Below, piece by piece: positions 1-20,000 of a DNA stretch of 20,000 nucleotides. The DNA is from Raillietiella orientalis. Lineage: Eukaryota. How positions within the stretch are numbered: position 1 is the first letter of the stretch; each line of letters begins with the position of its first letter. The stretch spans positions 45,852 to 65,851 of the forward strand of contig JAYWIR010000144.1 of assembly GCA_036172245.1 (NCBI GenBank), read 5' to 3'. The position numbers and the translations under genes were made by a program. Below the pieces are notes generated by a model. The model searched no databases and was not told where the DNA came from. It was given only the letters and a program-made list of their open reading frames with translations.

Positions 1-13
1 GGATCTTTCGGAA

Positions 14-3000
14 ATGGTCAGCAGCATCGACCACGTCTTCCTGGATGTCGACCTGTGTTCACGGGTAGGCAAACGGGGGAAAGTTGCGTCGGAGCTGTCT
101 GACCATTTCCGGTTGATATTCGAGGTGTGCCCGCGCGACAAGGGCCCCCCATCCAGGGCGTGGCGTCTGCCTGGGGAATGGACGCGACTCTTAGGTGCGA
201 AGGAACACCTTCGGGAATTCCTGAGAGGCGTCACCATCCGCAATCTCAATGATTGGGACCTTTTTAAGGCCTCGGTCCGCGAGTTTTGCGAGGAGTTCCC
301 CTTGCACCTCCTGCCCCAGGGATTTGGTAAGGGCATCCGTAACGAACGAGCGTACTTGTATGCCCGTCGTTACTCGAGGACCCCCAATGTCCGTCGCCTG
401 GCAGAGTACCGAGCCGGGGCCGAACGTCAAGCCTGGCAATCCGGATCGGCCAGCTTGCTGGACGACCAGGGCCGTAAGCACTCGGCTCCGGCTAGAATAC
501 GGCACCTCGTGCGGCGTTTATATTCCTCCCTTCACGCCAGGGCGCCCCCGGACCAAGATGCCTCTTGGCGCTTGCTTCCGAACGGTGCCCCGGCAATAGG
601 GGAGGAGGAGAAGGAAAGCCTCGACGAGCCTTTTACCACCGGCGAAATTCTCGCCGGTATCAAAAGGCTCAAGAGGCGGAAAGCGCCAGGGGAGTACGGC
701 CTGCCTGCGGAGTTATTTTAATGCTTCGCGGCAGAGTTGGCACCCCTGGTGCTTGAGTTGACAAGGCTGATCCGAGATGAAGGCGATGTACCCGCCTCGT
801 TTCGGTCAGCCAGAGTGAGGCTCCTTCCGAAAGGAGGAGACCTCAGGAAACTCAGCAGCTGGCGTCCGATCACAATTGTGAACACGTACGCCAAGCTGAT
901 CGCCGGACTGTGGGCTTCGCGTCTGGGTCAGGTGGCCAATTCCATAATTAGCCCGGAGCAGAATTACGCTGTTCCCGGGCAAAGTATGGAGGCCAGCCTC
1001 TTGTTCGCGAGCACATGGTTTCATGTGCAGAGTAGTAAAGAAAAGGAAGAGAGAAGGATTGGCAGCCCCGCTTTGGGGGCGTCAGCCGGGCAGGGACAGG
1101 ACTCCCAGGTGGGGAAGGGAGCCCTAGCGATCGCAGCCGATCTGCATAAAGCGTTTGACTGCGTGGACAAGGATCTCCTGCTGGAGCTCCTGGGACGCAT
1201 GGGCTTCCCTCCCTCCCTACTGACCCAGCTGCGCTCTTGCTGGCGCAGCGCGCTGATTAATATCTCTTTCAGAGGTCAAATGGCGTACGGCGTGCCGGTA
1301 CGGCGGAACATACGGCAGGGCGACAGCCTCAGTCCCCTGCTCTTTAGCACCTACTTTGAGTTGGTGCTGAGAGCGTACAGGGTGACTTTGGCCCCCTTGC
1401 CGAGCTCGTGTCCCGGCACGCCCGCCGTTGCAGCGCACGCCGACGATCTTTTGCTTCTGTTGCCGATGTCCACCCCGGCGAAGGCGGTCGGGGATTTCTT
1501 CGATCTGCTTAGCCGCGGGACCGGACTGCAGGTCAACAGGGCGAAGTCGACGGTGGTTCCAGTCGGTGCGGCGTGGGCTGGGCAGATGGACTAAGTCCGC
1601 TTGGAGATCCCCACGGCGAGGTGCTGGAAGTACCTTGGTGTGCCGTTGAAGGACTACCCTCCTGCGGAAGCGTGGTCCGGCTGCCTCCAAAAAGTGGAAA
1701 CGGCGATCGGCCCGTTCCTGGAAGACAAGTTTCTCCTTCCGGAACGGGCCTAGATATGGAACGCGTTCGCGGCTCCTATCCCCTGCCCCCTGCTTTTTGT
1801 TTGCCCCGTCCCCAGAGTGTTGAAAATACGGACGAAGGACCACCTGAGAATTGCTCTTTGGGGAAGAGGGAGGCCCCGAGTCCCGTTGAAGGACTTGTGT
1901 GCTCCACGTCGGGATGGCGGTCTGGGCCTCTTGACGATGGAGCGTTTAGAGATTCAGCTGCGGTGGCGAACCTTCGCCATCGCAGCGAAGTTATGGAGCA
2001 CTTCTTGGTGCGTTCCAGCCCGACTCCTTGCCAGCCGTGTATCCTGGACGGAGGGTCTCGCGTCCTATCTTCTCTGCCGTGGCAAGAAGATCAAGAGATG
2101 CGGACTTCTCCTGGGACGCATGGCAACTCTGGCTAAGGAAAACGGCTGGATAGTATGAAGCCCCGCCAACTCCTCCGCATGTCTGGAGGAGACAGCTGGC
2201 ACGTGGGCGAAGATAAAGCAGCAGAACGGAGAGATGTGGAACTGCGTGCGACGCGGCGCCTATTCCCTCTGCACTCTGCGGAAGATACTCCAGTGTCCCG
2301 CGAGAAGCACGTGGGCAGAGACAACCCCCCTAGCTACGGCAATGCCCTTCCTGAGGAGGGCGCTCTCGAGTAGCCGCAAGCCTAGGTGGCAAGTCTCCTG
2401 TCGCATCGCAGGCTAGGAGAAGTTGATCAGCGGCTGGTCCACGGGTAAACTGGCGGACGCCAGTACCCCTAGTGTCCAGCCGAGAGGACTGCAGAGATGG
2501 GGCGAGCTACTCGGCATCCAGCCGGATGACCTGAAGTGGCCCTCGGTATTAATTGGATCTAGGATCCTCCCCCTGAAGTGGCAGGAGTCGGCGCTTCTGT
2601 TGTTGCATTGGGGTCTACCCTGCAACGCACGCCGTTACCACTGGACCAGGGATCGAGTAGATCCTACCTGCATCAGGTGTGGGGAACGGGAAACTCTCCC
2701 CCACCTCCTTGTTGATTGTGCTGCACTCCGACCCCTGTGGGAACGTCTTCGTGCCTCCCTACGGATCCAGGAGGGCAGCCAGCCCAGAGACGTTTTTCGG
2801 TTTCTGTTCCTGCATGATGCATTGCGTCCAGGCGCTTTTCTGGCTGCACTTTGCTGCGTACGCGGGATTGTGACGTGCTGGAGCAACGTCGGAAGACCGA
2901 GTCACGACAGGGATGCCGTCGTACTTGCAGTCTGCTACCTGCGGTTGGTGACCAGATGGCCCCACGTGGGAATTATACGGACGGACCTCGAGGGCATCCT

Positions 3001-3034
3001 GCGAAGGATGGACCCTTTTCCCAGTGGTCAGTGA
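14..3034 (+). pseudogene. ORF2 (APE endonuclease-reverse transcriptase), single frame with five premature stops
   Basis: Track ORFs 14-721, 737-1594, 1817-2158, 2234-2416 and 2423-3034 share one frame. Stops end at 721, 1594, 1753, 2158 and 2416. YADD reads HADD here. Confidence 0.93.
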
Positions 3035-3243
3035 TCCTTCCCCAACCCTCCCAAATCTTTTTGTTTTTATGTTTTATTTTTCTTTTTGTTTTTCCCCCCA
3101 CCCCTTTCCGCTGCCGAGGAGAGTCGCGCCGGTCTGCGTACCGGCGACCCGGCAGGTCCAGTTGAGTTGGCCGTAGTGGGGCCTCGTACCACGAATCAAA
3201 GAGAATTTTTAATAAACGCCCCGGCGTGACCGGGTGGCAACAA
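3035..3243 (+). promoter_or_regulatory. 3' UTR of copy 1: C/T-rich tract, nested stem-loop, AATAAA, terminal hairpin
   Basis: CTGCCG(3111)/CGGCAG(3150) encloses CGCCGGT-ctgcgt-ACCGGCG. AATAAA is at 3211-3216 and a CCGG-cgtga-CCGG hairpin at ~3218-3238. Homologous to four other UTRs in the window. Confidence 0.8.
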
Positions 3244-4702
3244 TCAACTTGGCATCCGCATTCACTATTGTGATGGGACGCCAGTTGTTCATGCTCCTCA
3301 GATCTCCTCCCTTAGGGAGAAGCTGCACCTTTGCCGAACGAAACGAGGCGGGAACGTCACCTGTCTCGCGTATCAGCAAGGTGAGTTGATGTACCAGGGG
3401 GGTTAGCTCAGCCGCGAAAGTTTGATAAAACTCCGCGGACAGGCCGTCCTCCCCTGTAGCCTTTCGCCTCTTGAGCTTTCCGATGGCCGAGATGATCTCG
3501 CCCATCGTGAAGGACTCGTCGAGGGACTTTTTCTCTTCTTCCCCGATCGCAAGAGCGCCTTCCGGAAGCAGGATCCGTGAGAAATCCCGCTCGGGAGGCG
3601 TTCTTGCGTACAGGGAGGAGTAAAAACGCCGCAGCAGACCGCGGATCTGAGCGGTTGCCGAATGCTCCTGGCCCTGATCTTCCAGCAAGCTGGCCGATCC
3701 TGACTGCCAGGCTTGCCTCTCGGCTCCCGCTTTGTAATCCGTTATCCTGCGGATGTCGGGGGTCCTGGCGGAACGGCGAGCCTGCAGATAGGCTCGTTCG
3801 TTACGTACCCCGTTTCGAAATCCCGCAGGTAGTCGGTGCAGAGGGAACTGGTCGCAGAACTCCTGGACCGAACGTTTACAGCGGTCTCAATCCTGAAGTG
3901 TCTGCATCCTAAAGCTCCGTATAAACGTGCGGAGATGTTCCGTCGCGTCCGGGAGCTTCTTTCAGTCCCTTGGCAAAGGCCACGCTGACGAGGGGGGGCC
4001 CCTCTCGCGCGGATGGATTTCAAACACGATTGGTCGATGGTCGGACAACTCGCACGGCAACTTGCAGCGCCTGCCCACACGAGTGCACAGGTGTTCGTCA
4101 AGGAACACGTGATCGATGTTGTCCTCCATCCCTGGTACACTGGCCAACAAATTACAAGTGTGCACCGCCGCGCACACCTCGTTGACCAGGTCACGCTCGT
4201 GATTCGTCCCATGCGGTTTCAGACGAACGTTAAAATCGACTGCCACCAGATGGGCATTCCGCACGCCTGCCTCGGTCAACCAGTCGCGATGGAGGGCAAG
4301 GAAAAATTCTTTCGTGGCCCTCCTGTTCGTCAGGTCCGCTCCGCTCGGGGCGTAAACGTTCGTAACGATCAGGTCGATGGAGACGGACCAGCTGAGAGTC
4401 AGCTAGCCGACACGACCGTGATCGTCGAATCGAACTCCACGGGCGGCGGCCTTGATGGCGGGCCGAAGCAGGTAGGAGACACCACAACTTCTCGATGTTC
4501 CACACCGATACCACAGCCGCCCTCCGTAGATGCGTTCGATCGACTGCGCTTGTTCTGCAGAGATCACATGGATCTCCTGCAGCAGCACAAGGTCGAACGA
4601 TCCTAGAATGGCGGCCATGTCTCGTCTCCTGCCGGCGTCTGTCATGCCGTTCACGTTACAAACGGCGATGCGCAGACGACAGCGGGAGGAGATTCCCGGC
4701 AT
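3241..4702 (-). pseudogene. ORF2 N-terminal part (APE endonuclease, linker, first RT motifs), disrupted
   Basis: Track ORFs 4403-4702, 3962-4279 and 3209-3688 are successive pieces separated by stops and frameshifts. Confidence 0.9.
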
Positions 4703-6420
4703 TACTGCCGGGAAGATGACGGTGAGAGGGAACCCGCCTCTTCCGACGCGGGTGAGATGACCATTAAGGTTTCAGCCTCCTCAGGCACCTTGGGTACCTT
4801 TCCTGCTTCAGGCCCCTCCATCTCCTCCGTGTCTGTGGGTGGTGGTCTCTTCGGTGACGATTCCCGGGATTCTCCCACGCTCATGGCATCCTCGCAGTCG
4901 GAAGTGATCTCCACGCCTTCGACCTGGAGAGGGACTTTCCGGGGTTTGCTGGACTTCCTTGCAGCCTTCCGGCGGGGTGCCGCGGAGATGGAAACTTGGT
5001 TTCCGGCCTGCGCTTCGGGGTCGGAAGTTACCGACTCCTCGGTGGAGGCCGGACGCCTCACTGCTTTTTTGCCAGCCTTGAAGGGTTCTGGCGGCAACGA
5101 TGCAGCCAGCTCCTCCGCCGCACGCTCGAAGGCGGCGTCATCGATCACGATCACGATGACGGACGCTTCCGCCGGTTCGTTCCCCACGCTGTTTACATTT
5201 TCAACAGTGGGTTGCTCGTCGGTAGCAGCGATTTCTACCTTGCGGCGTTCGGCGGGGACGCGTTCCACGACGATGCTGCATTCTTTTAAATTCTCGCTAA
5301 CCTGCTGTTTTTTATTTTTGTAGGCGAGCTTTTTTTCAATTCGTCGTTCTTTCTTCGACTTTTTTTTCTTTTTCGCTGTGACTTCTTGCCATTCCCACAC
5401 CTGATCGCTTTTGTCGATCTTTTCGGCATTGGTTGCCGGGGTGTCGGCTGAGGCCTGGACCACGGGAGTGGGTGGCACAGCTTGAGCGGCAGCCTTTGCC
5501 GCCAGTTTTTTCTGTAACAGCCGCGCGCGTTTTTTTAGGTTCCTCGCGGAAACCACGCGCACAGCGGATTGTGGACACACTTCCTTCGTGTGGCCCATTC
5601 TCACGCATACCAGGCACTGTACGTTGGGGCACCTCCTTTTGAGGTGTACCGACGTGTTACAGAAGCCACAGTATTTTGGCTTCCTTACGTACCAGAGGTC
5701 GACGCTTTCTCCGCCGACCACCAGTTTGTGGGGAAGGGTAGAGCCCTCGCGAACAATTACACAAGCAGCCGTGAGGCCGCACTCAACTGTGGTATAGTCC
5801 TCGAAAGGACGAGGCTTGGTCCATACTGCATGGACCGTGCCTTCTTTGCCCAACGCGGCGCGTAACTGTTTATTCCGCATCCGCGCGGTAACTCTTAAAA
5901 GGTGGACCACCATAATGTGGTCCGCCGTAACGGGAAGGAGCCTGCGTGTCTCCATTACCACGGGGGTTTTATGCAGACGTTGGGCCAGATCTGCATGTTG
6001 GCAGATCACCTCTACGTACTGCCCCCCGCTACGAATGGTCATAGCGCAGAGCTCCTTCTCTTTAACATCGAAAGCGCGCATCCCCTTCGAAGAGGCGCGC
6101 GCACTCTCAGAAGAATACAAATTTCCTACCTTGTAGAATAGTGATGGGTGATACCCCTCTTCCACATTGGAAGATTATTCCGCCGCGGCTGCAGGCGATG
6201 GCGCCGACACGACGGCGCTATACGCCCGCGCTGCAGCAAGGACCGGTTTTGTGGGGGCGAACGCCCCCACCTATTTCGCCTCTGAAGGCGACGTTGCCGC
6301 CGCCTCCTGGCACTCCACCTTCTCTACAGGCTACGTTGCCGCCGCCACCTGGCACTCCATTTCTTCAGGAGGCGACGTTGCCACCGCCTCCTGACACGCA
6401 CTGGTGGTCGTGTCAGGCAT
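4702..6420 (-). pseudogene. ORF1 (gag-like nucleic-acid-binding protein, two CX2CX4HX4C knuckles, Lys-rich/low-complexity C-terminus)
   Basis: Knuckles read CGFCNTSVHLKRRC-PNVQ-CLVCVRMGHTKEVC. The frame of track ORF 4702-6165 extends to an in-frame ATG at 6418-6420 (MPDTTTS...) through three stops (6331-6333, 6271-6273, 6175-6177) and aligns with the copy 4 ORF1 N-terminus. Confidence 0.88.
6287..6397. repeat. 42-bp imperfect tandem repeat (~2.6 units) in the ORF1 N-terminus
   Basis: ACGTTGCC recurs at 6291, 6333 and 6375. The minus strand encodes a 14-aa unit resembling CQEAAATSPxExxE. Confidence 0.9.
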
Positions 6421-6504
6421 TGCTGCCTGATCGACCACCATCACACACGAAGCCTACACCTAGGGACGGTTCCCGGCACGAGGAGCACCGAGGAAACACG
6501 TCCG

Positions 6505-8670
6505 CTCTAGCCGACGTAAAGCTTTCGACTGCGTCGACCAGGAGCTACTTCTGGAGCTACTGGAACGCTTGGGATTTCCGGCCGTCTTCCTGGCCTACCT
6601 GCGCTCCTGCTTGCGCTTCGCGCTTATCAATATGAATTTCAGCGGCCGGCACGTGTTCGGCGTGCCGGTTCGTCGTGGCATCCAGTAGGGTGACAGCCTA
6701 AGCCCCCTGCTCTTCAGCATTTACTTTGAGTTGGTGCTGAGAGCATACGGGGAGACTTTGGCAACCCTGCCTAGCTCGTGCCCCGGCACGCCTGCCGTGT
6801 CGGCCTATGCCGACGATCTTCTGCTCCTGCTTTCCGGGTCCACCCCGGCATCCGCGTTCTAGGATTTCTTTGACGTGCTATACCGTGGGACAGGTTTCCA
6901 GCTAAACAGGTCGAAGTCGTCGTTGCTTCTCACCGACTCTACGAGGGCCGGACGGTCGGACTGGATCCGCTTGGGGATCCCCACGGGCAGGTACATCAAG
7001 TACCTTGGCGTTTTGTTGAGGGACTTCTGCTCTGCAGAAGCCTGGTCCGACCGTCTACAAAAAGTGGAGCTGGCAATCGGCCCGTACCGGGACGGCAAGT
7101 TTCACTTGAAGGAACGGGCCACGGTATGGAACGCTTTCGCGGCCCCCCTCCTTCTCCCCCTACTTTTTGTGTGTCCTATCCCGTACCAAATCAGGACACG
7201 GACTAGGGGCCTTATACGGAAAGCCCTCTGGTGCAACCGGAAGCCCCGCGTCCGGCTCAAAGACTTGTGCGCTCCAGGCAGCGACGGTGGACTTGGTCTC
7301 CTGACGTTGGAGCGCATGGAGCGACAGCTCCAATTCAGAAAACTTGCCCTTGTGGCAAAGTTTTGGACAGCACCCTGGTGTGCAACGGCAAGACTCCTTG
7401 CTCACAGGGCAACCGGCGGCTTTGGATTGACTTCAATCCTGGTAGCCAACGAACGCAGCCTGAACCATTGTGGTTATCAGCTGCGGGATTTGGTTGCCCT
7501 TCTGAGAGACAACTCTTGGATCTCCTGCATCCCAGCAGACTGGACTACCTGGATTCAGGACTCCGTTTCCGCATGGGCGAAGATCAATGGCACCAGCCAT
7601 GAGGACCTCTCCTGTCTCCGCAGAGGGAGGCACGCTGGTCAACCACTGCAGGAGATCGCCCGCAGCCCACGGAAGCTTCTGTGGGCCTCCTTCTCCCCTC
7701 TTGCCCCGGTGCTGCCCTCCATCAGGGAAGTTCGGGACAGCCAGCAGGAGGCATCGTGGGGAGTGTACTGCCTCATCGGAGGCAGGAAGAAATCACTGAA
7801 GGCGTGGACGCCGAGGGAACTAGCGGACGCTAGTACCCCGAGTGTCCCGCCGAACGGACTTTTAGGCTGAGGCGCGCTGCTCGAACTATCTCCAGAGGAG
7901 GTAAAGTGGCCCCCAGCGTCATGGGACAACGGCACCCTTCCTCTGCAGTGGCAGGAGACGGGGTTGCTTCTGCTCCACTGGGCACTTTTAAGCAGAGCAC
8001 GCCTGTCTCGCTGGACAACAAGAAATGTGGATGCTAGTTGTGCACAGTGCGGGGAAAGGGAGACCTTCCCTCACTTGATTCTGGAGTGTGTTGCCCTCCG
8101 CGAAATGTGGGAAAGACTCTCGTCGATCCTCAACATTTCGGAGGGTGACCCAAAAATTTTATTCAGACGCATTCTGACGCGAGAGGGCTTGTCAGCCTCC
8201 GGGAGCGTAGCAGTACTCTGCTGCATACGCGGTATCCTGGAGAAGTGCACCGCGTCTAGGAGAGGAAGGACCAGCCGGAATGCCATCCACTGGGCAGCGA
8301 TCTCCTTGGAGAAAGCGTGCCGTTGGCGCCGACTTCAAAAACATTTGCCAGCACTTGTTCGCATCCGAAACCGGATGCTAAGGCCTGCTCACGGCGCACC
8401 GTGATCTACTCCCTCCCTTCCCCTCCCCAAAAAAACATTGCCCTCCAGGCGTTTTTCTTTTTTTTGTTTTTGTTTCCTTTCATTTTTCCCTTCCCGGTGC
8501 CAGTGAAGGAACTTATCGGCCTCCGAGTCGATAGGGACAAGTGCTACTGAACTTCTGAACTGAACGTCTGACGTCGTAAAAAGGAAAATTTTAACAACAT
8601 AAACTTTATTACAAAATTTTGTAATGTTAAAATTTTAGTATTTAAAGCCCCGGCTTACCCGGATGAAAAA
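6505..8670 (+). mobile_element. Copy 3: 5'-truncated LINE (RT from KAFD onward, C-terminal zinc finger, 3' UTR)
   Basis: KAFDCVDQELLLELL at ~6519, GDSLSPLLF, intact YADDL (~6806), KYLGV, CAQCGERETFPHLILEC and a stop at 8404. The UTR ends in a CCGG-cttac-CCGG hairpin plus A5. Confidence 0.93.
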
Positions 8671-11160
8671 CCTGCGACAGGAGACGTGAGGCCCACGTCT
8701 CCCCAACCTATGGAGGTGGGGTCATGCCCCACCAGAAAATCAGCCCCCGCCACCCCGGCGAGGGCGTGAAACAAGGTGGCAGCGGCGGCTCCGCCGGACG
8801 TGGCCGCCGAAGTACAGGCATACATAAAGGAAAGCTACAACCCTGCCCTCCTTTACAAGGTAGGAAATCTTTATTCTCCGCTTACCACGCGGAAATTTGG
8901 AAACGCCATCCGTGGGATAGGAATCTCTGACGAGGAGATAATTTGCTTCTCGATTCGGAGCGGCAAGCAGTTCGCGGAGCTGATCTGCAAAGATGCAGCG
9001 CTCACACACAAACTGCTCTGAACGCCCGTTCCGTTCGAAGGGCGGAATCTCCTCCCACACACGGTGGATCACTCTTTGGTGATCCACCTCACTGGAACAA
9101 CGGTGCGGATGACCGAGGAAGCCATAGGCACTGAAATCAACAAGTTCGCGGAGATCTACGCGATGTGGTCGAAGCCCAACGCCTTTACTTATCGAGGCGC
9201 ATTCAGTGGGCGAGTAGCCGCACGCGTAACTCTCCGCGAAAACAAAGAACTTCCCCACAAGCTGGAGGTCAACGACGAGCTCGTCGACCTCTGGTACGTG
9301 GGGAAGGAAAAATACTGTGGGCTGTGCAACACATTCGGGCATCTTAAAAAGAGATGCCCGGATGCCACATGCCCAACCTGCGGCGCGAAGGGCCACACTA
9401 GTGCTGTGTGCCCGAAAAATACCGCGACAACGGCTTCAGCCCCTTTAACAAATGGGGGGAAGAGGGCAGAAAACAAAAAAACGAGCGACCAGCAGCTGAC
9501 CTCAGAAGAAGTCGTGCAGAAGGAGCAGGAGCCTCAAGAGAAGACTTCTGAGCCAACTGCCGACGAGGAAAACTGGAAAGTCGTTTCAAACAAAAAAGGA
9601 AAAGAAACACACAAAAAAACAAAAACTCCAAGAAAAAATCATAATAATACAAATCAGAACGCGAGGGTTCCCAAAAAACCCGCGGTCGGCAAACCAAAAA
9701 TTTTGCCGCGCGAGTCCATAAAGGAATGCCGCGTTACAAGCGAGCGCGTTCCGTCGATCGAGCGTCGATCGGCGAACGCGACTACCGCAACCGTCGCGAA
9801 CGCCGCGGAACCGCCGTAGGAATCCTGCGACAAACACGCGAGCAGCAGCGACGAGAAAAACTTCGCGAAGGCGGCAGAGGAACTAGCGGCCACCTTAATG
9901 CAGCCGCCTAAGCCTGCAAAGAAGGCCGTCAGACGTCCGGCGGAAGTTAAGGGCCCGGAAACTTCCGGGTCCGAGGCGGAATTCGGAAACCCTCCCACCG
10001 TCGCCCTTCCGAAGAGTAATGCGGGCCGGAAGTCGCGCAACCCTATGCGCGTCTCTCCCCCTCAGGCTGAGGAGGAGGAGATGCGCTCGGATAGCGAGGA
10101 GGCGATGTACACGAGGTCGCGGGATCCGTCTATCGACAGCATCCCGTCGGTCCTTCCTATCGACCTCATTCCGGATGCAGACGTTCCGGTCGTTGCCGAA
10201 ACGCCACCACCGCAGATGGACAACGATCATCCGCTTCCCGAACAGGAGGCGGCAATACGCACGCCACCACCATCATTAGTATGATGCGTGGAATCGCCTC
10301 TTGCCGGCAGCTGCGTAAAGTCTGTTGGAATGTCAACGGGCTGCGTAGCGAAAGCAAGAGGCGTAGCGTGGCCGACACCCTGCGACCTTTCGACCTGGCA
10401 CTTCTCCAAGAGGTGCATGCCCTCAGAGCAGAGGACGTCCAGGAAATCGAGAGGCTCACAGGGAGGAGGCTACTTTGGCGTGGTGGAGGAGACCACTCCC
10501 GTGGAGTGGCCTTCCTGCTGAAGCCGGCCGTCGCCAATGCGGTGCGCAGAGCACAGTTCGACGAGGAAGGTCGAGTAGGACAACTTGTACTCAAGTGGTC
10601 CGAATCGATCGACCTCGTAGTTACGAACGTGTACGCGCCCTGCACCACCCACAGGCGCGCAGAAGGCACTGCGTTCTTGGAAGCCCTGCGGCGAGACTGG
10701 CTGGCCGAAGCAGGCGTGCGGCGAGCGCATCTGATAGCGGGAGACTTCAAAGTCCGCCTGCTGTCGGAAGCACCCGACATAAGAGCACAATTGGTCAACC
10801 AGTTGTGTACGGCTATGCACACACGCAACTTGTTAATCGATGAAGCCGGGGTGAGAAGCAGAATCGACCACGTCTTCCTCGATAACCACTTGTGTACGCG
10901 GGTGGGGACTCGAGAAGCAATTGCGTCGAAGCTGTCCGATGACCCTCGGCTAGTAATCAACATCCATCCGCGCGACAGAGGTCCACCCTCCGAAGCGTGG
11001 CGCCTGTTCGGGGACTGGTTGCGACTCGCAGGAGCACGCGAACACCTGCGCGCATTCCTGAGTAGTTGTAAATTGCAGACTCTCGCTGACTGGGACAAAA
11101 TAAAACGCTCAGTCCGAGTGTTCTGTGACCAGTTTCCCCTCCATCAACTTCCTCCAGGAT
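8671..11160 (+). mobile_element. Copy 4: ORF1 + complete APE endonuclease, truncated just after EN
   Basis: ORF1 pieces 8776-9021, 9064-9819 and 9898-10284 share one frame and contain CGLCNTFGHLKKRC-PDAT-CPTCGAKGHTSAVC. ORF2 has WNVNGL, LQEVH, NVYAP, GDFK, RIDHVF and SDD. Confidence 0.93.
10284..11160 (+). pseudogene. ORF2 APE endonuclease domain, open frame but truncated (track ORF 10281-11189 reads into the next fragment)
   Basis: All canonical APE motifs occur in order, but the catalytic GDFN and SDH read GDFK and SDD. Confidence 0.88.
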
Positions 11161-12450
11161 CTCGCTGTGTCCTTGCAGCGTTCCCTTAAATCCGCGAAAA
11201 AGGCCTTAGAACGTCCGAAATCGATCAAGAAGTCGAAGATTCCGAACTCTGACGCAGAACCGGAAAACAGCCTGCGACATCGCGGCCTCTCGCTCGAAGG
11301 CCCTTCGCACGAAAAAGGATAACCCCAAAATTATCTCGTCCGCCAAAAAGGGAGAGATAATCGAGAGAAGCAAGCGTGCGAAGAAAGTGAAGAACTCAGG
11401 GGACTCTCCTAGAGAGGTAACCTCATGCTGCGACCCCGGAGGGAGGGAAAGGGTAGAGTCTGTGCCCCAGGTGCTTCAAGAGCTGGAGATAGCCGCGGTT
11501 TCCTTCCTCGTCCCTCCCACCTGTCCCTTGACAAGTGCTGCAACGACACGTTCCCAGCATTAATGCCGGGAATCGCCTCTTGCCGCCGTTTGCAAATTGC
11601 CTGTTGGAACGTCAGTGGGCTAAGCGACGACGGCAAGAGACGAGACGTGGCCTCCACCCTGGCATCGTTCGACCTGGTGCTGCTGCGAGAGATCCACCTG
11701 ATCTCCGCAGACCAAGCAGCGGGGATCGAGCGTATCTCGGGTGGACGGCAGCTGTGGCGTTGCAGCACCGTTAAATCTTGAGGTGTCGCGTTCCTGCTTC
11801 GTCCAGCTGTCGAGGCTGCGGCAAACGGCGTACGGTTCGATAGTGCCGGTCGCGTTGGGCATTTGACCATCAGGCTGTCCGACTCCATCGATCTGGTCAT
11901 TACGAACCTGTACGCACCAAGCGGTAGCGTCGCGCTAAGGACAAAGGCAAGGAAAGATTTTTTCTTTATTCTGAGACGCGAATATCTGGACAAAGCCGGA
12001 GGGCGCAAAGCGAACCAAATCGCAGGTGACTTTAAACTTCGCCTGCTGTCAGGTGCGTCCGACACACCTAGGGACCACGTGAACAAGCTGTGCGCAGAGA
12101 TGCACACGAGCAGCTTGTTCGCGGGAGATAGGGAAATGGCCGACAGCATAGATCACGTGTTTCTTGAACAGCACCTACGCTCACCCGTGGGGAGGCGCGG
12201 CAAGTTACCGTCGGAACTGTCGGACCATGACCGGATCGTACTCGAGGTGCGCCTACGCGATAGGGGTCATCCGTCATCTGCGTGGCGCTTACCGAAGGAC
12301 TGGATAAAACTCTTGAAAGCCGCGGAGCATCTTCGCCGATTCATACGAGGTTTCAGCTTGCAAATGCCTCAGGACTGGGACCGCTTCAAGCGCTGGGTCC
12401 GGTGGTTTTGCGACGAGTTTCCTATGAACCTTCTGTCTGCCTGGTTTAGT
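11155..12450 (+). mobile_element. Copy 5: ORF1 C-terminus + APE endonuclease, truncated at both ends
   Basis: QDLAVSLQRSLKSAKKALERP matches EELAATLMQPPKPAKKAVRRP of copy 4. TAATG lies at 11561, followed by WNVSGL, NLYAP, GDFK, SIDHVF, SDH and WFCDEFP. Confidence 0.9.
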
Positions 12451-14195
12451 GTTGCAAACTGTGTACGCTTGGGGCATTTATTCAGAAAAAACTCTCTATA
12501 ATTCGTAGTATAAGTCCCACTGTGTCCTTAGTCACGCGACCTGTCGGGACACCGGGAAGTATCCCGGCGTGGCACTCCTCGACAGCGGAAAAAGATGGAG
12601 AAAAAAACAAAAAGCAAAATTAAAGAGATAAATAAGCAAAAAAAAAAATTTGGAGGGCAGGAAGGTGATGATCGGACGCTGTAAGGAGGGCTCATCCGTC
12701 AAAGGGAGCCCTTGAGGTCTGTCCGCATACTTCTTAGATGGGGCCATCAAGCAGCTCTCCGCAAGAAGCGTACTGCGTGCTGGACGACTTCCCTCTGGTT
12801 CCAATCTACATCTTCGCTGCTGGCATCGCTCCAAGGCGCCACAATGCCTCGAACGCAGCACAGGACCGCGACGGCGGCTGCTGGCTGCAGGGCGTCCCGC
12901 ACGAAGAGCAGGCGGAAAACGTCTCTCGATGAACTGCCCGTAGGGTGCCCGAGGGTCGTCCTCAACCTTGCCCAGAGGGGTCGGAGGGCATGACAATCCA
13001 GTATAAGGTAGAAAAGCGACTCCCGCTTCCCGAACTTGGCACACTCAGGCCTTACACTTCCCCGCGTCCAGTGGAAGCGGTGCGCGTTGCAGGGTAGACC
13101 CCAGTGCAACAGCAGGAGCCCCGTCTCTTGCCACTTTAGAGGGAGAAGCCTGGATCCGATGAGTACTGAGCACGCGGGAGGGCTCTAGGGGTCGTGGCGT
13201 CTGCCAGTTCTCCCATGGTCCAACCGCTTATCCTTTTTTCCTTTCCTGCAATTCGGCAGGAGACATGCCACTTTGGCATCCAGGCTCTGGTTGAAGCCCT
13301 CCGTAGGAAGAGCAGCGTCAAAGCTCAAGGGATGGTCTCCGCTTACGTGCTTCTGCCGGGACACTCTAGGGTGCTCCGTAGGGTGCAGCCGGCGTTGGGG
13401 CCGAATCACAAGCGGTTCCAATTTTCGGTTCGTGGGTTGTTCAGCTTGGCCTATGTCGCAACGGATTCCTCCAGCTAAGCGTAGGAGTTGGCGTGGCTGC
13501 ATATCGTTTAGCCGTTTTCCCTCACCCGGTTTTGGATGCGTCCATGGAGAAGGCCGCATCTCCTGACTTTTCGGCCGAGATACAGAAGGAAAGACACGAG
13601 TCCATGCGTTCTGGATACACGGTTGTCGAGGATGCGGCCCGGAGCGCACCAGAGGGTGTTTCATGTCTTTGCTACGATAGCGAGGGTGCGCCATCGCAGC
13701 TGTATGTCCAGGCGCTCCAACGTCAGGGGGCCAAGATCTTCGTCACGACGCATAGTGCACATGTCCTTAACAAACTCACGAGGCCTCCCGCTGCCCCAGA
13801 TGGCGATGCGGAGAAGGCCTTTTGTCCTCTTCTCCAAGTCACGGGGGACAAGGCACACAAAGAGCAGGAAGCGAAGGAAGAAAGCAGCGAACCCGCTTCA
13901 CACGGCAGTCCGTTAAGGCAGAAGAAACTTGCCTTCCAGGAACGGGCCGATTGACAACTCTACCTTTTGGAGACGACCTGACCAGGATTCTGCGAGTCAA
14001 AAGTCCCCCAACGGGACACTCGGGTACTTCAGGTACTTGACCGTGGGGATTCCTAAGCGAATCCAGTTAGGCCGTCCAGCCCACGTCGCACCCACCGATA
14101 CCACCGACGACTTCGCCTTCTTTACCTGCAGTCCATTCTCACGGCTCAGCAGGTCAAAGAAATCCTCGACTGCGACTGCCGGGGCGGACATGAGC
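12449..14195 (-). mobile_element. Copy 6: 5'-truncated LINE (late RT/thumb, C-terminal domain, 3' UTR)
   Basis: DFFDLLSRENGLQV, WIRLGIPTVKYLKY, LGPLTLERLDIQLRW and HWGLPCNAHRFHW match copy 1. The minus-strand UTR has AATAAA at 12477-12482. Confidence 0.92.
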
Positions 14196-14204
14196 GGCCC
14201 GCTT

Positions 14205-14520
14205 TCTAAGGATGACGACGCGAAGGCCCCATCTGACATCCACCATACAGCAACAGCTTGCCGTCATACTCCACAGGATCACGGACAGTGATCCCAGCAG
14301 ACAGTGTTCCCTTCCCGTAACTTCCCCAGTTTTCTTTATTTCTTTGTTTACTTTTGTTTCGTTTCCCCTCCCCTCGGCTTCCGAGGTCGACCGTTCCGGT
14401 CTGCGCACTGGAAGCCTGGCAGGCTCAATGTTTCTAAGTCGTGGCTGCACTACTGATCCAGTCACAGGTTGTATGGGTTTATTTTAGAAAATCAACGTTT
14501 CGGCGAACCGGGTTTCAATT
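14205..14520 (+). mobile_element. Copy 7: ~315-bp 3'-end fragment (last ORF2 codons + 3' UTR)
   Basis: TTRRPHLTSTIQQQLAVILHRI resembles the copy 1 C-terminus VTRWPHVGIIRTDLEGILRRM. It is followed by a T-rich tract, a TTCCGGT-ctgcgc-ACTGGAA hairpin and the terminal TTCGG-cgaa-CCGGG. Confidence 0.8.
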
Positions 14521-15140
14521 CAATTTCTGGAGCGTGACGCCTCCCAGGAATTCGCGAAGGTGTTCCGTCGCACCTGAGAGTCGCTTCCAGTTACCCGGCA
14601 GACGCCATTCCCAGGATGGCGGTCCCTTGTCGCGAAGCCGCATCTCGAAATTCAACCGGGAATGGTCCAACAACGTTGACGCAACTTTCCCTTGTTTGCC
14701 GACCCGCAAACAAAGGTCTGTGTCGAGGAAGACGTGGTCGCTGCTGCGGACCATTCCCTTCTCACCCGCGAACAAGTTGCGCGCACGCATGGCGGCGCAC
14801 AACTCGTTCAACGCGTTCACTTGTGTTTCCGGCTCACCTGTTAGCAGGCGAAGATTGAAATCTCCCGCTATCAGGTGAGCCTTTCGCACGGTCCTTTCCG
14901 CCAGATAGTCGCGTTTCAGGGTTTGCAGCAACCTGTTTCCTCAGCTGTTGCCCTGCTTGCCGTTGGGGGCATACACGTTTGTGACGATCAGATCGATCGA
15001 GTCGTACCACCTGAGAATCGGCTGGTCGACTCGACCGTCGTCATCAAAGAGTACGCCCTTCACATCAGTGTCGATGGCTGGCTTGACGAAGAACGCGATC
15101 CCGCAGGTACTGCGGGCGCGGCATTGCCAGTGCAACCGAC
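14518..15140 (-). mobile_element. Copy 8: internal APE endonuclease fragment
   Basis: Contains CGIAFFVKP, NVYAPNG, GDFN, SDHVFLDTDLC and EHLREFL. Confidence 0.9.
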
Positions 15141-16290
15141 GATGGACTGCAGCGTTATGGTCCATGTCACTGGTATTATTAGCTTTATGACGCTGTCTGC
15201 GTTCAATGGCGAGCTAAAGAAATAAGATGTGCACGCGTTCTGGCCGAAACGCAGGATTTTCTATGGATATGACAGCCTATTTGGGGTACAGACAGCAGCG
15301 CGTGTTACAGTGCATGAGGGTGGTGCGCTGCTTCACAAACTCGAGGTCTGCTAAGAATCGGTAGGCCTCTAACACGTAAAGAAACCCCTTTTTTTTAACT
15401 CTTTCCATGCAATAGAGCACTTACGTAAAAGTTGCCCGCACATTGTGTGCCACTTAAGCGGAGAAAAGGGTCACATGCGCCGTGTGTGCCCTAAGCGCCC
15501 CACTCCAGTGCCGCCTGCTTCCTAAAAGACGCTGGCAACACGAGGAAAGTTGGTTTAAAGACCAAATACAGAATCTGGTCTACAGAAGCTGCAAGCCACC
15601 CTTCCTCCCACACAGGCGTCGGAAGAAAAAACTTCCGAAGACGCGATAGACGAGGTGGGTTGGCAGCTGGTTGACGCCAGAAAGGAAAAGCCTTAAAAAA
15701 AGGCATCAGTCGAAGAGGAAAAGGTCGCGACCGACGCGCGAAAAACGAAAAAGTCGCGTCCGAAAAAACTCTGTCAGTGCTCGGTTGCACTGGAGCGCGT
15801 AGACGTTCCGGTGGCACTGGAGCGCGTAGACGTTCCGGTGGCACTGGAGCGCGTAGACGTTCCGGTGGCAGCCACCCGGGACGACAAGCCTCTCCTCGCC
15901 GCTTCCGCTGTGCCGGAGATTTCGGACTGCGAATTCTCTGTTTACACAGAGAGTGAGACGCGCGACGCGCTTGCCGACGTTGAGGATGTGGACGCGTTCG
16001 CGAAGGCGGTGGAGGAGCTCGCGGCCACGCTGGCCGAGCGTGAGAATCCCTCGCGCAAGGCAGTGCGAAGGCTGGCTCCGCCCAAGAAGGCCCACGCAGG
16101 TGAGTTCGACCTGGGGTTCGGAAGCACATCTCCCTCGTTGGAAGCACCCCTCGGAATGCGGGACGTAAGTTCCAATAGCCGAAAAGGGGCCTCCCTCCAC
16201 CAGCGAGGAGGAGAAGCAGGAAGTAGACGGCAGCCTAAGAATCCTGGAGGGGGAACTCCCACACTCGAAAGTCGTCGAGCAGGCCACCCC
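15135..16290 (+). mobile_element. Copy 9: heavily decayed ORF1 fragment
   Basis: MDCSVMVHVTG resembles VDHSLVIHLTG. Degenerate knuckles read HLRKSCPHIVCHLSGEKGHMRRVCP (~15418-15493). AFAKAVEELAATL..KAVRR is also present. Confidence 0.85.
15787..15870 (+). repeat. Perfect 27-bp tandem repeat x3 (encodes ALERVDVPV)
   Basis: GCACTGGAGCGCGTAGACGTTCCGGTG occurs at 15787, 15814 and 15841. Confidence 0.97.
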
Positions 16291-16294
16291 ATGG

Positions 16295-16403
16295 ACGGTG
16301 TTCAGCAGGCGCTGAGCCAGGCGTGCATCTCTACATGCAAGCTCCATTCGCCAACCGCCACTTAGCACTGAAAGACCTTCGAGGTCTTCTTTTACGTTCA
16401 ACC
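16295..16403 (-). mobile_element. Fragment 10: ~110-bp ORF1 piece
   Basis: NVKEDLEGLSVLSGGWRMELACRDARLAQRLLNT aligns with copy 2 DVKEKELCAMTIRSGGQYVEVICQHADLAQRLHKT. Confidence 0.78.
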
Positions 16404-16582
16404 GCGTTGCAGGATAGACCTCTATTCAACAACCTCTATGCAACAGCGCTCTCTCTTGCCACTTTAGGGGAAGAATCCTGGATCATGTGAATACCGCGGA
16501 CCACTTCAGGTCATCCGTTCGGATACCGAGCAGTTCGCCCCATCTCTTTAGTTTTCTCGGCTGGACACACGGGGTCGTAGCG
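16404..16582 (-). mobile_element. Fragment 11: ORF2 C-terminal-domain piece, inverted relative to fragment 12
   Basis: ATTPCVQPRKLKRWGELLGIRTDDLKWSAV..SRILPLKWQE..CNA matches copy 1 at ~2458-2628. Confidence 0.9.
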
Positions 16583-16599
16583 TGGAAGTTTTTCGTCGA

Positions 16600-17086
16600 C
16601 TTCCCAGATTCGTTTTTCGGCTCCTCTTCCTACGGGACGCCCAGTAGCGAGCCGTATCTGTTGCAGCGTTTTCCTGTTTCCGCTGTATTTTTGCCGTCTG
16701 GAGATGATTTGACGAAGAAGGTGATGACTACGACAGGAAAGTGATTAAATATGCAGTTCGCTTCAAGTGGATGGCAACCCGACCGTTCAACTATAAACAA
16801 ATATGATGAAGGACCTCGACGACATCCTGCAGTAAATGCACCCTGCACCAACCAGGTAGAGATCTCTTGCCGATCCTCCAAGGATTTTTTTTTTTAATTT
16901 TATTTTTTTTACTTTATTTTTGTTTTTATTTTTTCCCCTATCCACGTTTGCTGCAGTGAAGAGTCAAGCCGTTCTGCCCGTCAACATCCCGCCCGGTTCG
17001 CTGTTGTGTTAGCCGTTGTGGGGCCCTTGTTCCGAATCGGTTGTTCTGTTTATAATAAATGCCCCTCCGTGACTGGGAGGCAACAT
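16600..17086 (+). mobile_element. Fragment 12: ORF2 extreme C-terminus + 3' UTR
   Basis: PRFVFRLLFLRDA..YDRKVIKYAVRF matches copy 1 from ~2783. It is followed by a T-rich tract, AATAAA at 17054-17059, a CCTCC-gtgactg-GGAGG hairpin and CAACAT. Confidence 0.85.
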
Positions 17087-18120
17087 GGAAACGGAAGTTC
17101 CGCACCTACCCTTTTACCCTGTTCCGGACAAGGAATAGCATTCTGCAGGCATTCTGTGAGCTTTGCCGTTAATTGTGTGTCCTACCTGAGAGATCGGCGG
17201 CTTGCTGTTCGGAGAAGGCGTGTATCTTCAGCTGCAGGACCAGATGGAACTTCACGCAGTACGTGAGTCAACAACCGCCTATTATCATCAACCTGCAACC
17301 CGTTGACGTTTCAGCAGATCATGAGGACGTGACGAAAGGATACGAGCTTACTTATTACTGCTGCGGAAATGGCGGCGCTTCCCCCGCCTCGTCCGGCGAG
17401 GCATCAGGCTGGAGCGCGTCGTGTTGGGGAGCGCAACCGCACTCGTTCTCCTGCACGCCGCGCGCGGCGCTCTCTTTGGAGTCAAAGAATACTGTCCTGG
17501 ACTTAGAGGATTATCGAAAACCGTTCGCGGCATCTGGCTTCCTCCTGGAAACTTTGGGTTTCCGCGCACTCCAAGGTTTCCAAAGGGCTTGGGGAACCTT
17601 TGTGCTGCCATCGGACTCCAACTCTGAGTCGAAATTTCGTGTGCACGATAAATGTTTTTTCTACCTGCTCTTTTGCTGGCATCTTGGACGTGCTCCAAAA
17701 TTCAGCGAGGGTGCCACCGTCGACGATCCCCCTCTTAAGGTCTCGGCGTTGTCAACTTCCCTTTCGGGGCAGGCGGCACCGACCGCGCACTCAACCGCAG
17801 CGGAAACTTTTTCCTGCGAATTCCTTGACGTACGGGGATGCCTCCTCACCCCTCCTACTTTTCGGATGGGTAAATGGGAAGGATCTTTTGTTTTTCTCTG
17901 TTTCTTCTCCGCTTCCCCCTACAAGAATCCAGACGGCTTCTTCGTCTTTCAGGTTGCCTCGGCTCGATACGAGGGCCTTTCGAATTATTCCCGTTGGGCT
18001 ATGAAAGCCAGTTGCTTTCTCGCTACCTTTGCCTTTTGCACGTTCTTATCGCAAGGTACGGACAAATTCGCAGGATTCTTGAGAGTCGAGCGAGGCTTAG
18101 GAGTCTTTCCCGACTAACGA
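17085..18120 (-). mobile_element. Copy 13: very decayed ORF1 C-terminus + EN N-terminus
   Basis: The minus strand reads IC*NVNGL, FHLVLQLKIHAFSEQQAADL and LFLVRNRVKG*VRNFRFH (EN). TAATA at 17353-17357 is in exact register with TAATG of copy 2. The upstream low-complexity frame is ORF1-like; the right boundary is set by the composition shift. Confidence 0.75.
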
Positions 18121-19034
18121 CTCGCTAAGGACGGACTGTCTTCACATTTTGCACTTAAAGGATGTTATATGTGAGGTAGGCAAAAGAAGGATATGTGTAA
18201 ATTGCGTATGTTAAGACTGGAAATGCAGAATTCTATGATAAAACTGTTGAATGTAAGGAATCGTTTGTGCACATAAGTTCATGCAAGCGGGATTCGGAAT
18301 TCATTTGAAGATTGAATGGGTGTATCTTTTAATATTGCTAATAAAGATGGTCTGAATATCAGTGCAGATTAAGTGCAGAAAAAAGAGTTGAAGGATCAAA
18401 TGCAAAGAAGCTTGAAATTATTATGATCATGTTAATTGTAAATAATCGGTGGTTGTGGTGGCGGATGATGATAATTAATGTCATAGTAAACAAAACCCTA
18501 TAAGAGAAATGGATAATGGCGATAGAATAATTGTTAGTAAACAGTTAGCTATTATGAAAATCAACGATCTAATTAATAATTTAAGTAGATCTTTAAATAG
18601 ATATTTTAATTTGAGTTTAAATGTTTGACATTATAATAACATCCTCAAACAAACCAGTCAACTATTTATCAAAAAATGCACACAACCAGTTGTTTCGATT
18701 ATAAAGGAATAATAAGAAAATATGACAACTGTAAGATAAAATTCGAAAACATAAAAAAATGAAACATGTTTTCAAATGCACAAAAGACAGAAAATGTAGC
18801 ATCGATATCTTTGGAAGATATCAGTTCTGTGCGGGATGCGGAATCGAGAACGTAAACGAGGATAGAAGAAGTCCATTTAATTCTGCTTTTATCGCTAGAT
18901 CGGCACATATGGACCTATAAAGAAAGGGTACCTGTGCAACAAGCTTCTTATTTAGAATAATTCAAAATTCCAAAAAAAATAAACAGCAAAATGCAAAGAC
19001 TTTATTCTACTCGAATTAAATAATAATAACACTT

Positions 19035-19914
19035 CTAGTCAGTTAAGCCCTTCAACTTTACAGTGAATGTCGTTCCAGCTGTCCATGTGCATATCAGTTT
19101 GCTAGGTACAGGCTTCACATTCCGGCCTCGACGGAGCCTAAAAAAATTCCCAGGCATTTGTTCGGAATCGAAAGTTATCCATTAAAATACGGGAAAGCAT
19201 TCATAGGATAGAAAACCTTGCTTCCGCAAATTACATTCCTGCCAGAGGATGTGAGAAAGAAGGAGCAAGGAGAAGTTTGAAATAAATAATTGCAAACTCA
19301 CTCTCTCCGAAAAATTTCTGAAACCTGTGCTAATTCACACAAAAATTTTACATAACAGAGATGCACACAAATCAAAGAGATATTCCCGTTAACGCATTTT
19401 GTATAAAGAACAGAAGAAAGTAGAAACGACTTCTAGACAATGCTTTCCAAGAAGCCATGCACAACAGTAGGGGTCTTAAGGATCTATGTATTCTATTGCA
19501 ATGAGGCCAGAAGCAAAAGCTACCAAACTGAAAAGAAGAATGCACAAAAATACATACGTTTCAACTCTCCCAGAAAAAGTTAAAGAACAAGAACGGTCTG
19601 GTCCCTCAAGGAAGAAATTAATCTGCTCAGAAGCACGAGGTCCCTGCACCTGAAATCAAAAAATATTTGCGGCTCTGATAAAATTTACTCACCTCAATGT
19701 CCAAACTGCAACGACTTCTTGGTGCAGGATGTTTACGATTACTCAGCCACACTTCACAATTAGTTCCAGTGTTGTCAAAATAAAGAAGGCACGGTCCTGT
19801 CTGACTTGTAAAATACAGCTGATCTTCTATAATCCTATCCTCATTTAAAGTGACGTTATTACACAGAGAGAGACATTGACTACCCCTACTACAGAAGAGA
19901 AGAACAATGGATAC
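19035..19914 (-). CDS. Probable spliced host gene (3' part), small Cys-rich, possibly secreted protein of unknown function
   Basis: Exon 19693-19914 is 74 codons without a stop after a TTTTTTGTAG acceptor. A 43-nt intron 19650-19692 reads GTGAGT..TTTCAG. Exon 19558-19649 is open only in the matching phase and ends at a GTATGT donor. A phase-compatible terminal exon 19035-19137 follows TTTTTTTAG, with AATAAA at 19001-19006. Splicing within 19138-19557 is unresolved. Confidence 0.6.
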
Positions 19915-20000
19915 CTACAAAAAACCAACTCTCAGTGAAATGGTAACAACCGGAAATAAAAACGAAAAGCAGATTGCGCAGAATTGAGCAAGCAGTTTGA

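Follow-up and report, generated by a model that had tools for sequence, protein, structure and literature searches.

A nest of decayed L1-like LINE copies

The window analysed here is a stretch of 20,000 nucleotides from Raillietiella orientalis (contig JAYWIR010000144.1, positions 45,852 to 65,851 of the forward strand), and all positions below refer to it. Self-comparison showed that 1-17,100 consists of a nest of diverged copies of one repeat family, lying on both strands and sharing about 65-80% identity. All LINE copies in the window are broken by stops or frameshifts. The G+C content is about 55-60% in the repeats compared with about 34% from about 18,100 on, which shows the LINE family to be far more G+C-rich than the DNA around it. 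The stretch 18100-20000, in which self-similarity to the LINE copies also stops, probably belongs to the host itself or to an unrelated repeat. Just past copy 12, a frame of 314 residues (17173-18117, plus strand) had neither a Pfam match nor similarity to the LINE copies. Two tandem arrays lie inside the repeat nest, one at 6286-6397 (42-base unit, 2.7 copies, 83% matches) and one at 15782-15870 (27-base unit, 3.3 copies, 98% matches). No tRNA-like genes were found in the window.

The window was scanned against Pfam in 21 ORFs or frames, 16 of which had no match to any family. The main coding features are the following.

737-1594: reverse transcriptase match (RVT_1, E 1.6e-17)
2438-3034, plus strand: C-terminal part of copy 1 ORF2 with the CX2CX7HX4C motif, stop codon at 3032-3034 (zf-RVT, E 5.7e-4, 20.9 bits, cut-off 27.5)
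4702-6165, minus strand: probable ORF1 and longest intact frame in the window, 487 residues, rich in Lys and Glu, directly upstream of the ORF2-like sequence of a minus-strand copy
9064-9819, plus strand: ORF1-like frame related to the 4702-6165 frame and upstream of ORF2-like sequence, with a zinc knuckle below the cut-off (zf-CCHC_6, E 4.9e-4)
10281-11189: apurinic-type endonuclease match (Exo_endo_phos, E 5.5e-11)

The zf-RVT domain gave weak matches in two C-terminal pieces, both below the cut-off (E 3.5e-4 and 5.7e-4). A three-copy alignment showed the CX2CX7HX4C motif in the translations of copies 1 and 3, and a replacement of its second Cys in copy 6. The L1-type domain set (endonuclease, reverse transcriptase and Cys-His motif) is thus pooled from different decayed copies of the family. 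The intact 487-residue frame, which we regard as probably ORF1, had no Pfam family and no relative in the protein search.

A protein search with the reverse transcriptase piece returned one close relative, P0001, and four distant ones. P0001 is an intact protein of 619 residues from a public metagenome protein set and is 68% identical to the piece. Its best match among solved structures was human L1 ORF2p (E 7e-40 to 5e-39), followed by R2 proteins at 7e-17 and weaker, in a comparison where LINE clades other than L1 and R2 have no solved structure. A Tx1-named Atlas cluster scored 0.88, which we take as a lead only. We classify the LINE family as L1-like, an assignment made by its ORF2 domains and by the closeness of P0001 to human L1 ORF2p rather than by a phylogeny of reverse transcriptases.

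Five copies share a 3′-UTR of the same layout

A homologous 3′-UTR was found on the sense strand in five copies (copies 1, 3, 6, 7 and 12). After the ORF2 stop codon, a pyrimidine tract of about 70 bases is followed by a hairpin (hairpin 1), a spacer, a short U run with AATAAA, a small GC hairpin and the sequence GCAACA. The elements of copy 1 and the corresponding regions of the other copies are listed below.

3035-3242, plus strand: copy 1 3′-UTR
3035-3110, plus strand: copy 1 pyrimidine tract, (T5N)n and then a C-rich run
3111-3155, plus strand: copy 1 hairpin 1, with outer stem 3111-3116/3150-3155, GG/CC 3118-3119/3148-3149, inner stem 3127-3133/3140-3146 and loop CTGCGT
3176-3196, plus strand: copy 1 GTGGG..CGAAT block, kept in sequence in copies 1, 6 and 12 only
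3211-3216, plus strand: copy 1 AATAAA hexamer, 26 bases before the element end
3220-3234, plus strand: tentative small terminal GC hairpin of copy 1 (hairpin 2), CCCGG-cgtga-CCGGG, segment z 0.41
3237-3242, plus strand: copy 1 3′ terminus GCAACA, without poly(A); from 3243, coding sequence of an inverted copy
8404 to about 8668, plus strand: copy 3 3′-UTR, inner hairpin 8514-8533, outer stem lost by deletion
12450-12660, minus strand: copy 6 3′-UTR, hairpin 1 at 12585-12541 with an inner stem of 9 bp including one G-U, GCAACA at 12455-12450
About 14300-14533, plus strand: copy 7, a short 3′ fragment, inner hairpin 14394-14413, outer stem 14378-14383/14417-14422 with 5 of 6 pairs
16836-17091, plus strand: copy 12 3′-UTR, degenerate hairpin 1 at about 16951-16996; GTGGG..CGAAT, AATAAA and GCAACA intact; terminal hairpin in another register

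The pyrimidine tract after the ORF2 stop is common to all five copies (3035-3110; 12660-12591, minus strand; 16862-16950; 8430-8500; 14320-14372) and is made of T5 blocks split by single other bases, after which it becomes C-rich. In three of the five copies, parts of the tract are able to pair with the purine-rich internal loop (GAGGAG) of hairpin 1; this pairing was set aside as being of low complexity and as one that would cross the outer stem. A role of the U-rich tracts in clamping poly(A) in an ENE-like triple helix was also discarded, since no flanking stems were found.

The GTGGG..CGAAT block, which the sequence-only reading had placed in copies 1, 6 and 12, was found there at 3176, 12520 (minus strand) and 17018. 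These are three of five matches in the window, against 0.86 expected; the other two, at 9981-9998 (minus strand) and 14043-14062, lie outside any UTR. The block is conserved as sequence, without supported pairing. In copy 3, an AT-rich stretch (8575-8645) sits in its place and carries an inverted repeat of its own, with 31-base arms (8577-8607/8614-8644) that are 77% complementary; a small insertion, or a replacement particular to the subfamily, may account for it. The AATAAA hexamer is intact in copies 1, 6 and 12 and degenerate in copies 3 and 7. As for terminal hairpin 2, its folding was indistinguishable from that of shuffled sequences (z -0.66 to +0.68), and a hand comparison on alignment A6 showed that copy 6 has lost it and that copy 12 forms it in another register; its place among the structures of the UTR is tentative.

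Compensatory changes keep hairpin 1 paired between subfamilies

Hairpin 1 was examined in all five copies on alignment A6. The sequence-only reading had described it as an outer stem enclosing an inner hairpin, and the sequences it gave were recovered: the outer stems CTGCCG/CGGCAG of copy 1 (3111-3116/3150-3155) and CTGTCG/CGACAG of copy 6 (12585-12580/12546-12541, minus strand), and the inner hairpins CGCCGGT-ctgcgt-ACCGGCG of copy 1 (3127-3146), ACGCCGGGA-tact-TCCCGGTGT of copy 6, TTCCGGT-ctgcgc-ACTGGAA of copy 7 (14394-14413) and TATCGGC-ctccga-GTCGATA of copy 3 (8514-8533). In copy 1, the internal loop lies on the 5′ side and is purine-rich (GAGGAG-like). RNAalifold, run on an unguided alignment, recovered both stems.

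The inner stem of 7 bp is fully paired in four of the five copies (1, 6, 3 and 7), and four of its seven pairs have changed on both sides. With copy 1 as the reference, copy 6 shows one pair changed on both sides and copy 7 two (CG..CG to TT..AA), while copy 3 has four such pairs, so that 9 of its 14 stem letters differ and all seven pairs are still formed; each of these three copies also carries one G-U pair. Because the CG..CG to TT..AA replacement in copy 7 needs transversions, CpG decay cannot give such changes. The three G-U pairs would be C-A on the antisense strand. Counted over the four intact copies, 28 of 28 pairs can form on the sense strand compared with 25 of 28 on the antisense strand, in line with the earlier claim that the G-U pairs favour the sense strand.

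The outer stem is complete (six of six pairs) in copies 1 and 6, which differ by one compensatory change from C-G to U-A, and has five of six pairs in copy 7; in copies 12 and 3 it is down to three of six, part being deleted, and it is clear only in copies 1 and 6. Copy 12, whose hairpin had been called degenerate, retains three of seven inner and three of six outer pairs. The fold of copy 1 also contained a long-range helix of 10 bp between the terminal hairpin and the 5′ arm of hairpin 1; it was rejected, as by eye it does not occur in the other copies. All in all, the stem-loop in the 3′-UTR has been kept between subfamilies with compensatory changes in its stem.

The inner stem stands out from all other helices of the UTR

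The covariation evidence has a depth of five sequences, all from one window, which is below R-scape-grade testing. As a control, the 13 pairs were treated together over the five copies (65 cells) and compared with 500 shuffles.

Cells paired: 83.1%; shuffled 70.5 ± 3.2; reached in 0/500
Double-change cells: 10; shuffled 3.4 ± 1.5; reached in 0/500
Covariation score: 0.577; shuffled 0.316; reached in 0/500
Pairs changed on both sides, a measure robust to relatedness: 7; shuffled 3.1; reached in 3/500
Further pair types: 14; shuffled 11.8; reached in 69/500, not significant

When the partners were slid by 1-3 columns, pairing fell to 31-44% of cells. The percentage of cells paired and the covariation score have to be read with the caveat that related sequences free of constraint can beat all shuffles in 5-25% of trials. 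Since relatedness alone may beat the shuffles, the 306-column alignment of the five UTRs was scanned for all helices of seven pairs spanning no more than 80 columns. The inner stem was the sole helix among 16,543 that is fully paired in four of the five copies. Two helices were paired in three of the five, both between the pyrimidine tract and GAGGAG. On the antisense strand, the best helix was paired in one of the five copies.

Folding energy was less discriminating. Stretches of 139-150 bases of the UTR folded no better than dinucleotide shuffles on either strand (z -1.13 to +0.47 on the sense strand), and among the 53-base segments around hairpin 1 only that of copy 6 stood out.

Copy 1: -23.8 kcal/mol, consensus fold, z -1.16
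Copy 6: -27.1 kcal/mol, consensus fold, z -2.90, 2 of 200 shuffles as good
Copy 7: -21.5 kcal/mol, other fold, z -0.95
Copy 3: -13.0 kcal/mol, other fold, z -0.44
Copy 12: -5.9 kcal/mol, no hairpin, z +1.71

Within the whole UTR, predicted pair probabilities for the inner stem were 0.74-0.84 in copy 1, 0.97-0.99 in copy 6, 0.90-0.96 in copy 3 and 0.00 in copies 7 and 12, and those for the outer stem were 0.60-0.94 in copy 6 and 0.01 in copy 1. In copy 7, the 3′ arm can pair instead with the upstream sequence GGCUUCCG, the fold with the consensus stem being 2.5 kcal/mol worse. The compensatory changes of copy 7 are therefore ambiguous.

These figures bear on the possibility that hairpin 1 has no function and is a GC-rich palindrome inherited from an ancestor, in which compensatory changes arose by chance among five related, decaying copies. 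The small number of sequences, the success of unconstrained relatives against the shuffles, the insignificant count of further pair types, the folding z-scores that are mostly near zero, the alternative fold of copy 7 and the broken hairpin of copy 12 would all fit such a history. It would have to account, however, for a stem that is still fully paired in copy 3 after most of its letters have changed, for a helix that has no equal in the scan and no antisense counterpart, for a count of both-side changes that is robust to relatedness and that shuffling rarely reached, and for a UTR that has diverged less than third codon positions (see below). We therefore consider a chance origin quite improbable. 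The comparison of the five copies supports the conclusion that hairpin 1 is a real RNA structure, selected on the sense strand, in the 3′-UTR of an L1-like LINE family.

The UTR is constrained and ends at a defined sequence

Constraint was assessed on one pair, copies 1 and 6, aligned over 1466-3254. In the coding part, the difference between the two copies amounts to 45-46% at third codon positions, compared with 19-33% at first and second positions. An excess of this size at third positions indicates that the two lineages diverged while protein-coding and are not merely decaying from one master. Their UTRs differ at 29% of positions (64/219), significantly less than third positions (187/412; Fisher p 8e-5).

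The 3′ end could be mapped exactly in copy 1, where the coding homology of its minus-strand neighbour (NWRPITIVNADAKLI) extends down to 3243. Copy 1 therefore ends at 3242, with GCAACA and without an A run. The same sequence is present in copies 6 and 12, again with no A run after it; 14 unassigned bases separate it in copy 6 from the neighbouring copy that is interrupted. The ends of copies 3 and 7 are approximate. The genomic copies thus end at a defined sequence, independently of a poly(A) tail, as seen at the junction of copy 1 and in copies 6 and 12. In UnaL2 and ZfL2, the stem-loops adjoin tails of short repeats, (TGTAA)n for example; at the 3′ end of the present family, no tail repeat was seen. 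A conserved 17-base tail (ATCAACTTGGCA in copy 1, similar to CTAAACCAGGCA in copy 6) was considered and rejected, the letters of copy 1 belonging to the neighbouring inverted copy.

Both copy 7, a short 3′ fragment, and copy 12, whose 5′ part is inverted, retain the UTR, as expected if priming starts from the 3′ end. Copy 12 (16404-17091) looks like a 5′-inverted insertion: 16404-16583 matches 2457-2628 of copy 1 in reverse orientation (76% over 180 bases), the part from about 16585 to 17091 runs forward with the end of ORF2 and the UTR, and about 150 bases are missing at the junction. Twin priming in L1 insertions yields a 5′-inverted pattern of this kind.

From the end of hairpin 1 at 3155, the element runs on for 87 bases to 3242; the small hairpin at 3220-3234 lies nearer the end, with weak support. 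An internal position of this sort, unlike that in known cases, leaves room for roles in 3′-end processing or RNA stability, or for a role of the ORF1 protein. For the first of these, the hairpin, the U-rich tracts and AATAAA would form one module that is read by host factors and not by the element's own reverse transcriptase, the U-rich elements and the structure aiding cleavage and polyadenylation or protecting the transcript. Such a module would fit the canonical AATAAA placed 26 bases before an end that reads CA, the U-rich runs that copies 1, 6 and 12 have both 5′ of the hairpin and immediately before AATAAA, and a hairpin that is internal to the UTR and not terminal; the covariation and the strand evidence suit any role at the RNA level. 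On the other hand, the genomic copies carry no poly(A), and leaving a polyadenylated tail uncopied would itself require specific positioning of the reverse transcriptase. In addition, AATAAA is only a putative poly(A) signal in the host, and sites for host factors are usually short single-stranded motifs that do not need a covarying stem of 7 bp. Weighing these points, we find a host-read module unlikely.

For the second, hairpin 1 would be a site for binding or packaging by the ORF1 protein, or would serve another step of RNP assembly such as nuclear import or cis preference, and would not be a priming signal. The window does hold an ORF1-like frame with a weak zf-CCHC_6 match upstream of ORF2-like sequence (9064-9819) as well as the intact 487-residue frame (4702-6165, minus strand), and covariation is silent on which protein reads the stem. 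Nothing in the window ties ORF1 to the UTR, however, the intact ORF1 candidate is without detectable relatives or domains, and in the LINEs tested it is ORF2 that reads the 3′ stem-loop, as the account in PMC4176376 has it. A role through ORF1 is in our judgement very unlikely.

Searches for known families and for further copies

No Rfam family reached its gathering score anywhere in the window, and permissive Rfam scans of 3000-3300 and 12400-12700 gave unrelated matches only (E 0.49-3.1), all of them far short of the gathering scores, with no ribozyme family among them. The sequence-only reading had been unable to fit the motif to a known ribozyme fold, and no Rfam ribozyme model matched. 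A self-cleaving ribozyme or other catalytic RNA at the 3′ end of the element, which that reading had raised, has some precedent, certain non-LTR elements having a ribozyme at the 5′ end. The Rfam results just given speak against it, as does the fold, a simple bulged hairpin without supported tertiary pairing; the candidate pseudoknot between the loop and a downstream sequence (GCGU with ACGC in copy 1) was rejected, being absent by eye from copies 6 and 7. We regard catalysis by this RNA as exceedingly improbable.

A covariance model of hairpin 1 (R1), run over the whole window without filters, found the five training copies only (69.4 to 37.8 bits), the next match being at 10.3 bits with an E-value of about 1. 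Beyond the window, two metagenome scans, one with the C-terminal alignment A2 and one with the reverse transcriptase alignment A5 that includes P0001, returned no relative, and neither did a scan of viral contigs. A scan of prokaryote genomes gave two distant reverse transcriptase fragments, 25% and 34% identical; the contigs that carry them, 1,046 and 1,646 bases long, are too short to hold a homologous UTR. No UTR-bearing copies were thus found in the metagenome, viral-contig or prokaryote genome scans.

The motif had been called an undescribed cis-acting RNA motif. Its cis-acting character is upheld as far as a sense-strand hairpin in the 3′-UTR is concerned, by the covariation, the G-U asymmetry and a UTR divergence below that of third codon positions; 'undescribed' holds only in the sense that no Rfam family matches, and motifs of this kind are already in print in the accounts of PMC3747384 and PMC4176376.

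Comparison with known 3′ stem-loops

Stem-loops at the 3′ ends of LINEs are an established class, and the present family leaves the general picture unchanged. Structures in the 3′-UTRs of R2 and of R1-clade elements (SART1, R1Bm) are required for precise initiation of reverse transcription, and R2 copies lack poly(A). These elements belong to clades other than L1 and are site-specific. Unlike them, the copies in the window abut other copies at unrelated positions (copy-1 equivalents of about 900, 313 and 234), and the Rfam scans, which cover any R2 3′-UTR model in Rfam, gave no match.

One likeness is to L1-clade LINEs of plants, namely the monocot 1a lineage with LINE1-1_ZM and the partner SINEs ZmSINE2/3, for which Ohshima described a 3′-end hairpin with compensatory changes (PMC3747384). 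As that source presents it, the plant case shares with ours an L1-like element, a hairpin in the 3′-UTR, a stem whose letters covary and the conservation of some unpaired letters, and the hairpin is read there as evidence of stringent-type recognition (PMC3747384). The conserved loop motif given for the plant hairpin is UCU (PMC3747384); in copies 1, 7 and 12 the loop has UCU at its 5′ edge, a resemblance only. In contrast, the plant hairpin as reported falls within the final 45-50 bases, ahead of poly(A) (PMC3747384), whereas hairpin 1 ends 87 bases early in copies that lack poly(A). The likeness is therefore one of kind, without demonstrated sequence homology to the hairpin of PMC3747384, and whereas the plant lineage of that paper has its partner SINEs, model R1 finds LINE copies only in the window.

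Stringent-type LINEs need a 3′ stem-loop that is bound by ORF2, and in zebrafish the ORF2 proteins of ZfL2-1 and ZfL2-2 bind the cognate stem-loop, with the stem proposed to serve general and the loop specific recognition (PMC4176376). The L2-clade tails (eel UnaL2, zebrafish ZfL2-1/ZfL2-2) resemble hairpin 1 in that a small loop caps a short stem within the 3′-UTR, and their copies end without poly(A). The ORF2 of the window differs in being closest to human L1 ORF2p among solved structures, which points to a different clade. The function of the L2-clade stem-loops was shown by the assays described in PMC4176376, compared with a function of hairpin 1 that is drawn from analogy.

For human L1 and Alu, Grechishnikova and Poptsova proposed a 3′ stem-loop with a loop of 5-7 bases, a stem of 8-10 bp and a bulge at 4-6 bp from the loop (PMC5135761). 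Set against that consensus, hairpin 1 has a loop of 6 bases and an inner stem of 7 bp, which an asymmetric internal loop separates from 6-8 additional bp. Human L1 is unlike the present family in ending in poly(A), being of the relaxed type, and the evidence put forward in that work is positional conservation and not covariation between subfamilies (PMC5135761).

A putative recognition signal for the ORF2 protein

In the light of other LINEs, the best-supported explanation is that hairpin 1 acts in cis as a signal for the ORF2 protein of the element itself, with reverse transcription starting at the exact 3′ end in the manner of stringent-type LINEs, a proposal for which we see an even balance between right and wrong. 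The link of hairpin 1 to a stringent type of priming gains from the mapped 3′ junction of copy 1, because that junction has no poly(A). The protein binding and the priming role are what we infer from other LINEs. In this scheme, the element would be transcribed into an RNA that probably ends near the CA of GCAACA, 26 bases past AATAAA. The ORF2 protein would then recognise the bulged hairpin, the stem supplying the shape and the conserved unpaired letters, in the GAGGAG-like internal loop and the CUGCG-like loop, supplying the identity; the 3′-terminal GC hairpin and the GCAACA end may contribute. Target-primed reverse transcription would then begin precisely where the UTR ends, rather than on poly(A). 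Against recognition by ORF2 stands copy 12, which survives, and perhaps was inserted, with a broken hairpin, although decay after insertion can explain this.

A wider possibility, which we put forward tentatively and think somewhat unlikely, is that the family represents an uncatalogued lineage of the L1 superfamily which lies outside green plants and no longer depends on poly(A) for priming, and whose ORF2 would read a bipartite structured UTR made of the long U-rich tract and the covarying bulged hairpin, with the terminal GC hairpin and GCAACA.

How LINE reverse transcriptases choose their own RNA has been settled for few elements, most of them from clades other than L1. A covarying 3′ hairpin in an L1-like family whose copies lack poly(A) would add a case of the stringent type within or near the L1 clade. 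Hairpin 1 offers a small, defined RNA of about 45 bases for binding and structure work, and the UTR model marks the 3′ ends of the family for annotation and could find non-autonomous elements that borrow its tail. If a poly(A)-independent lineage outside green plants does exist, stringent recognition would be wider in the L1 clade than the plant cases suggest, and this would favour the stringent type as the ancestral state of the clade.
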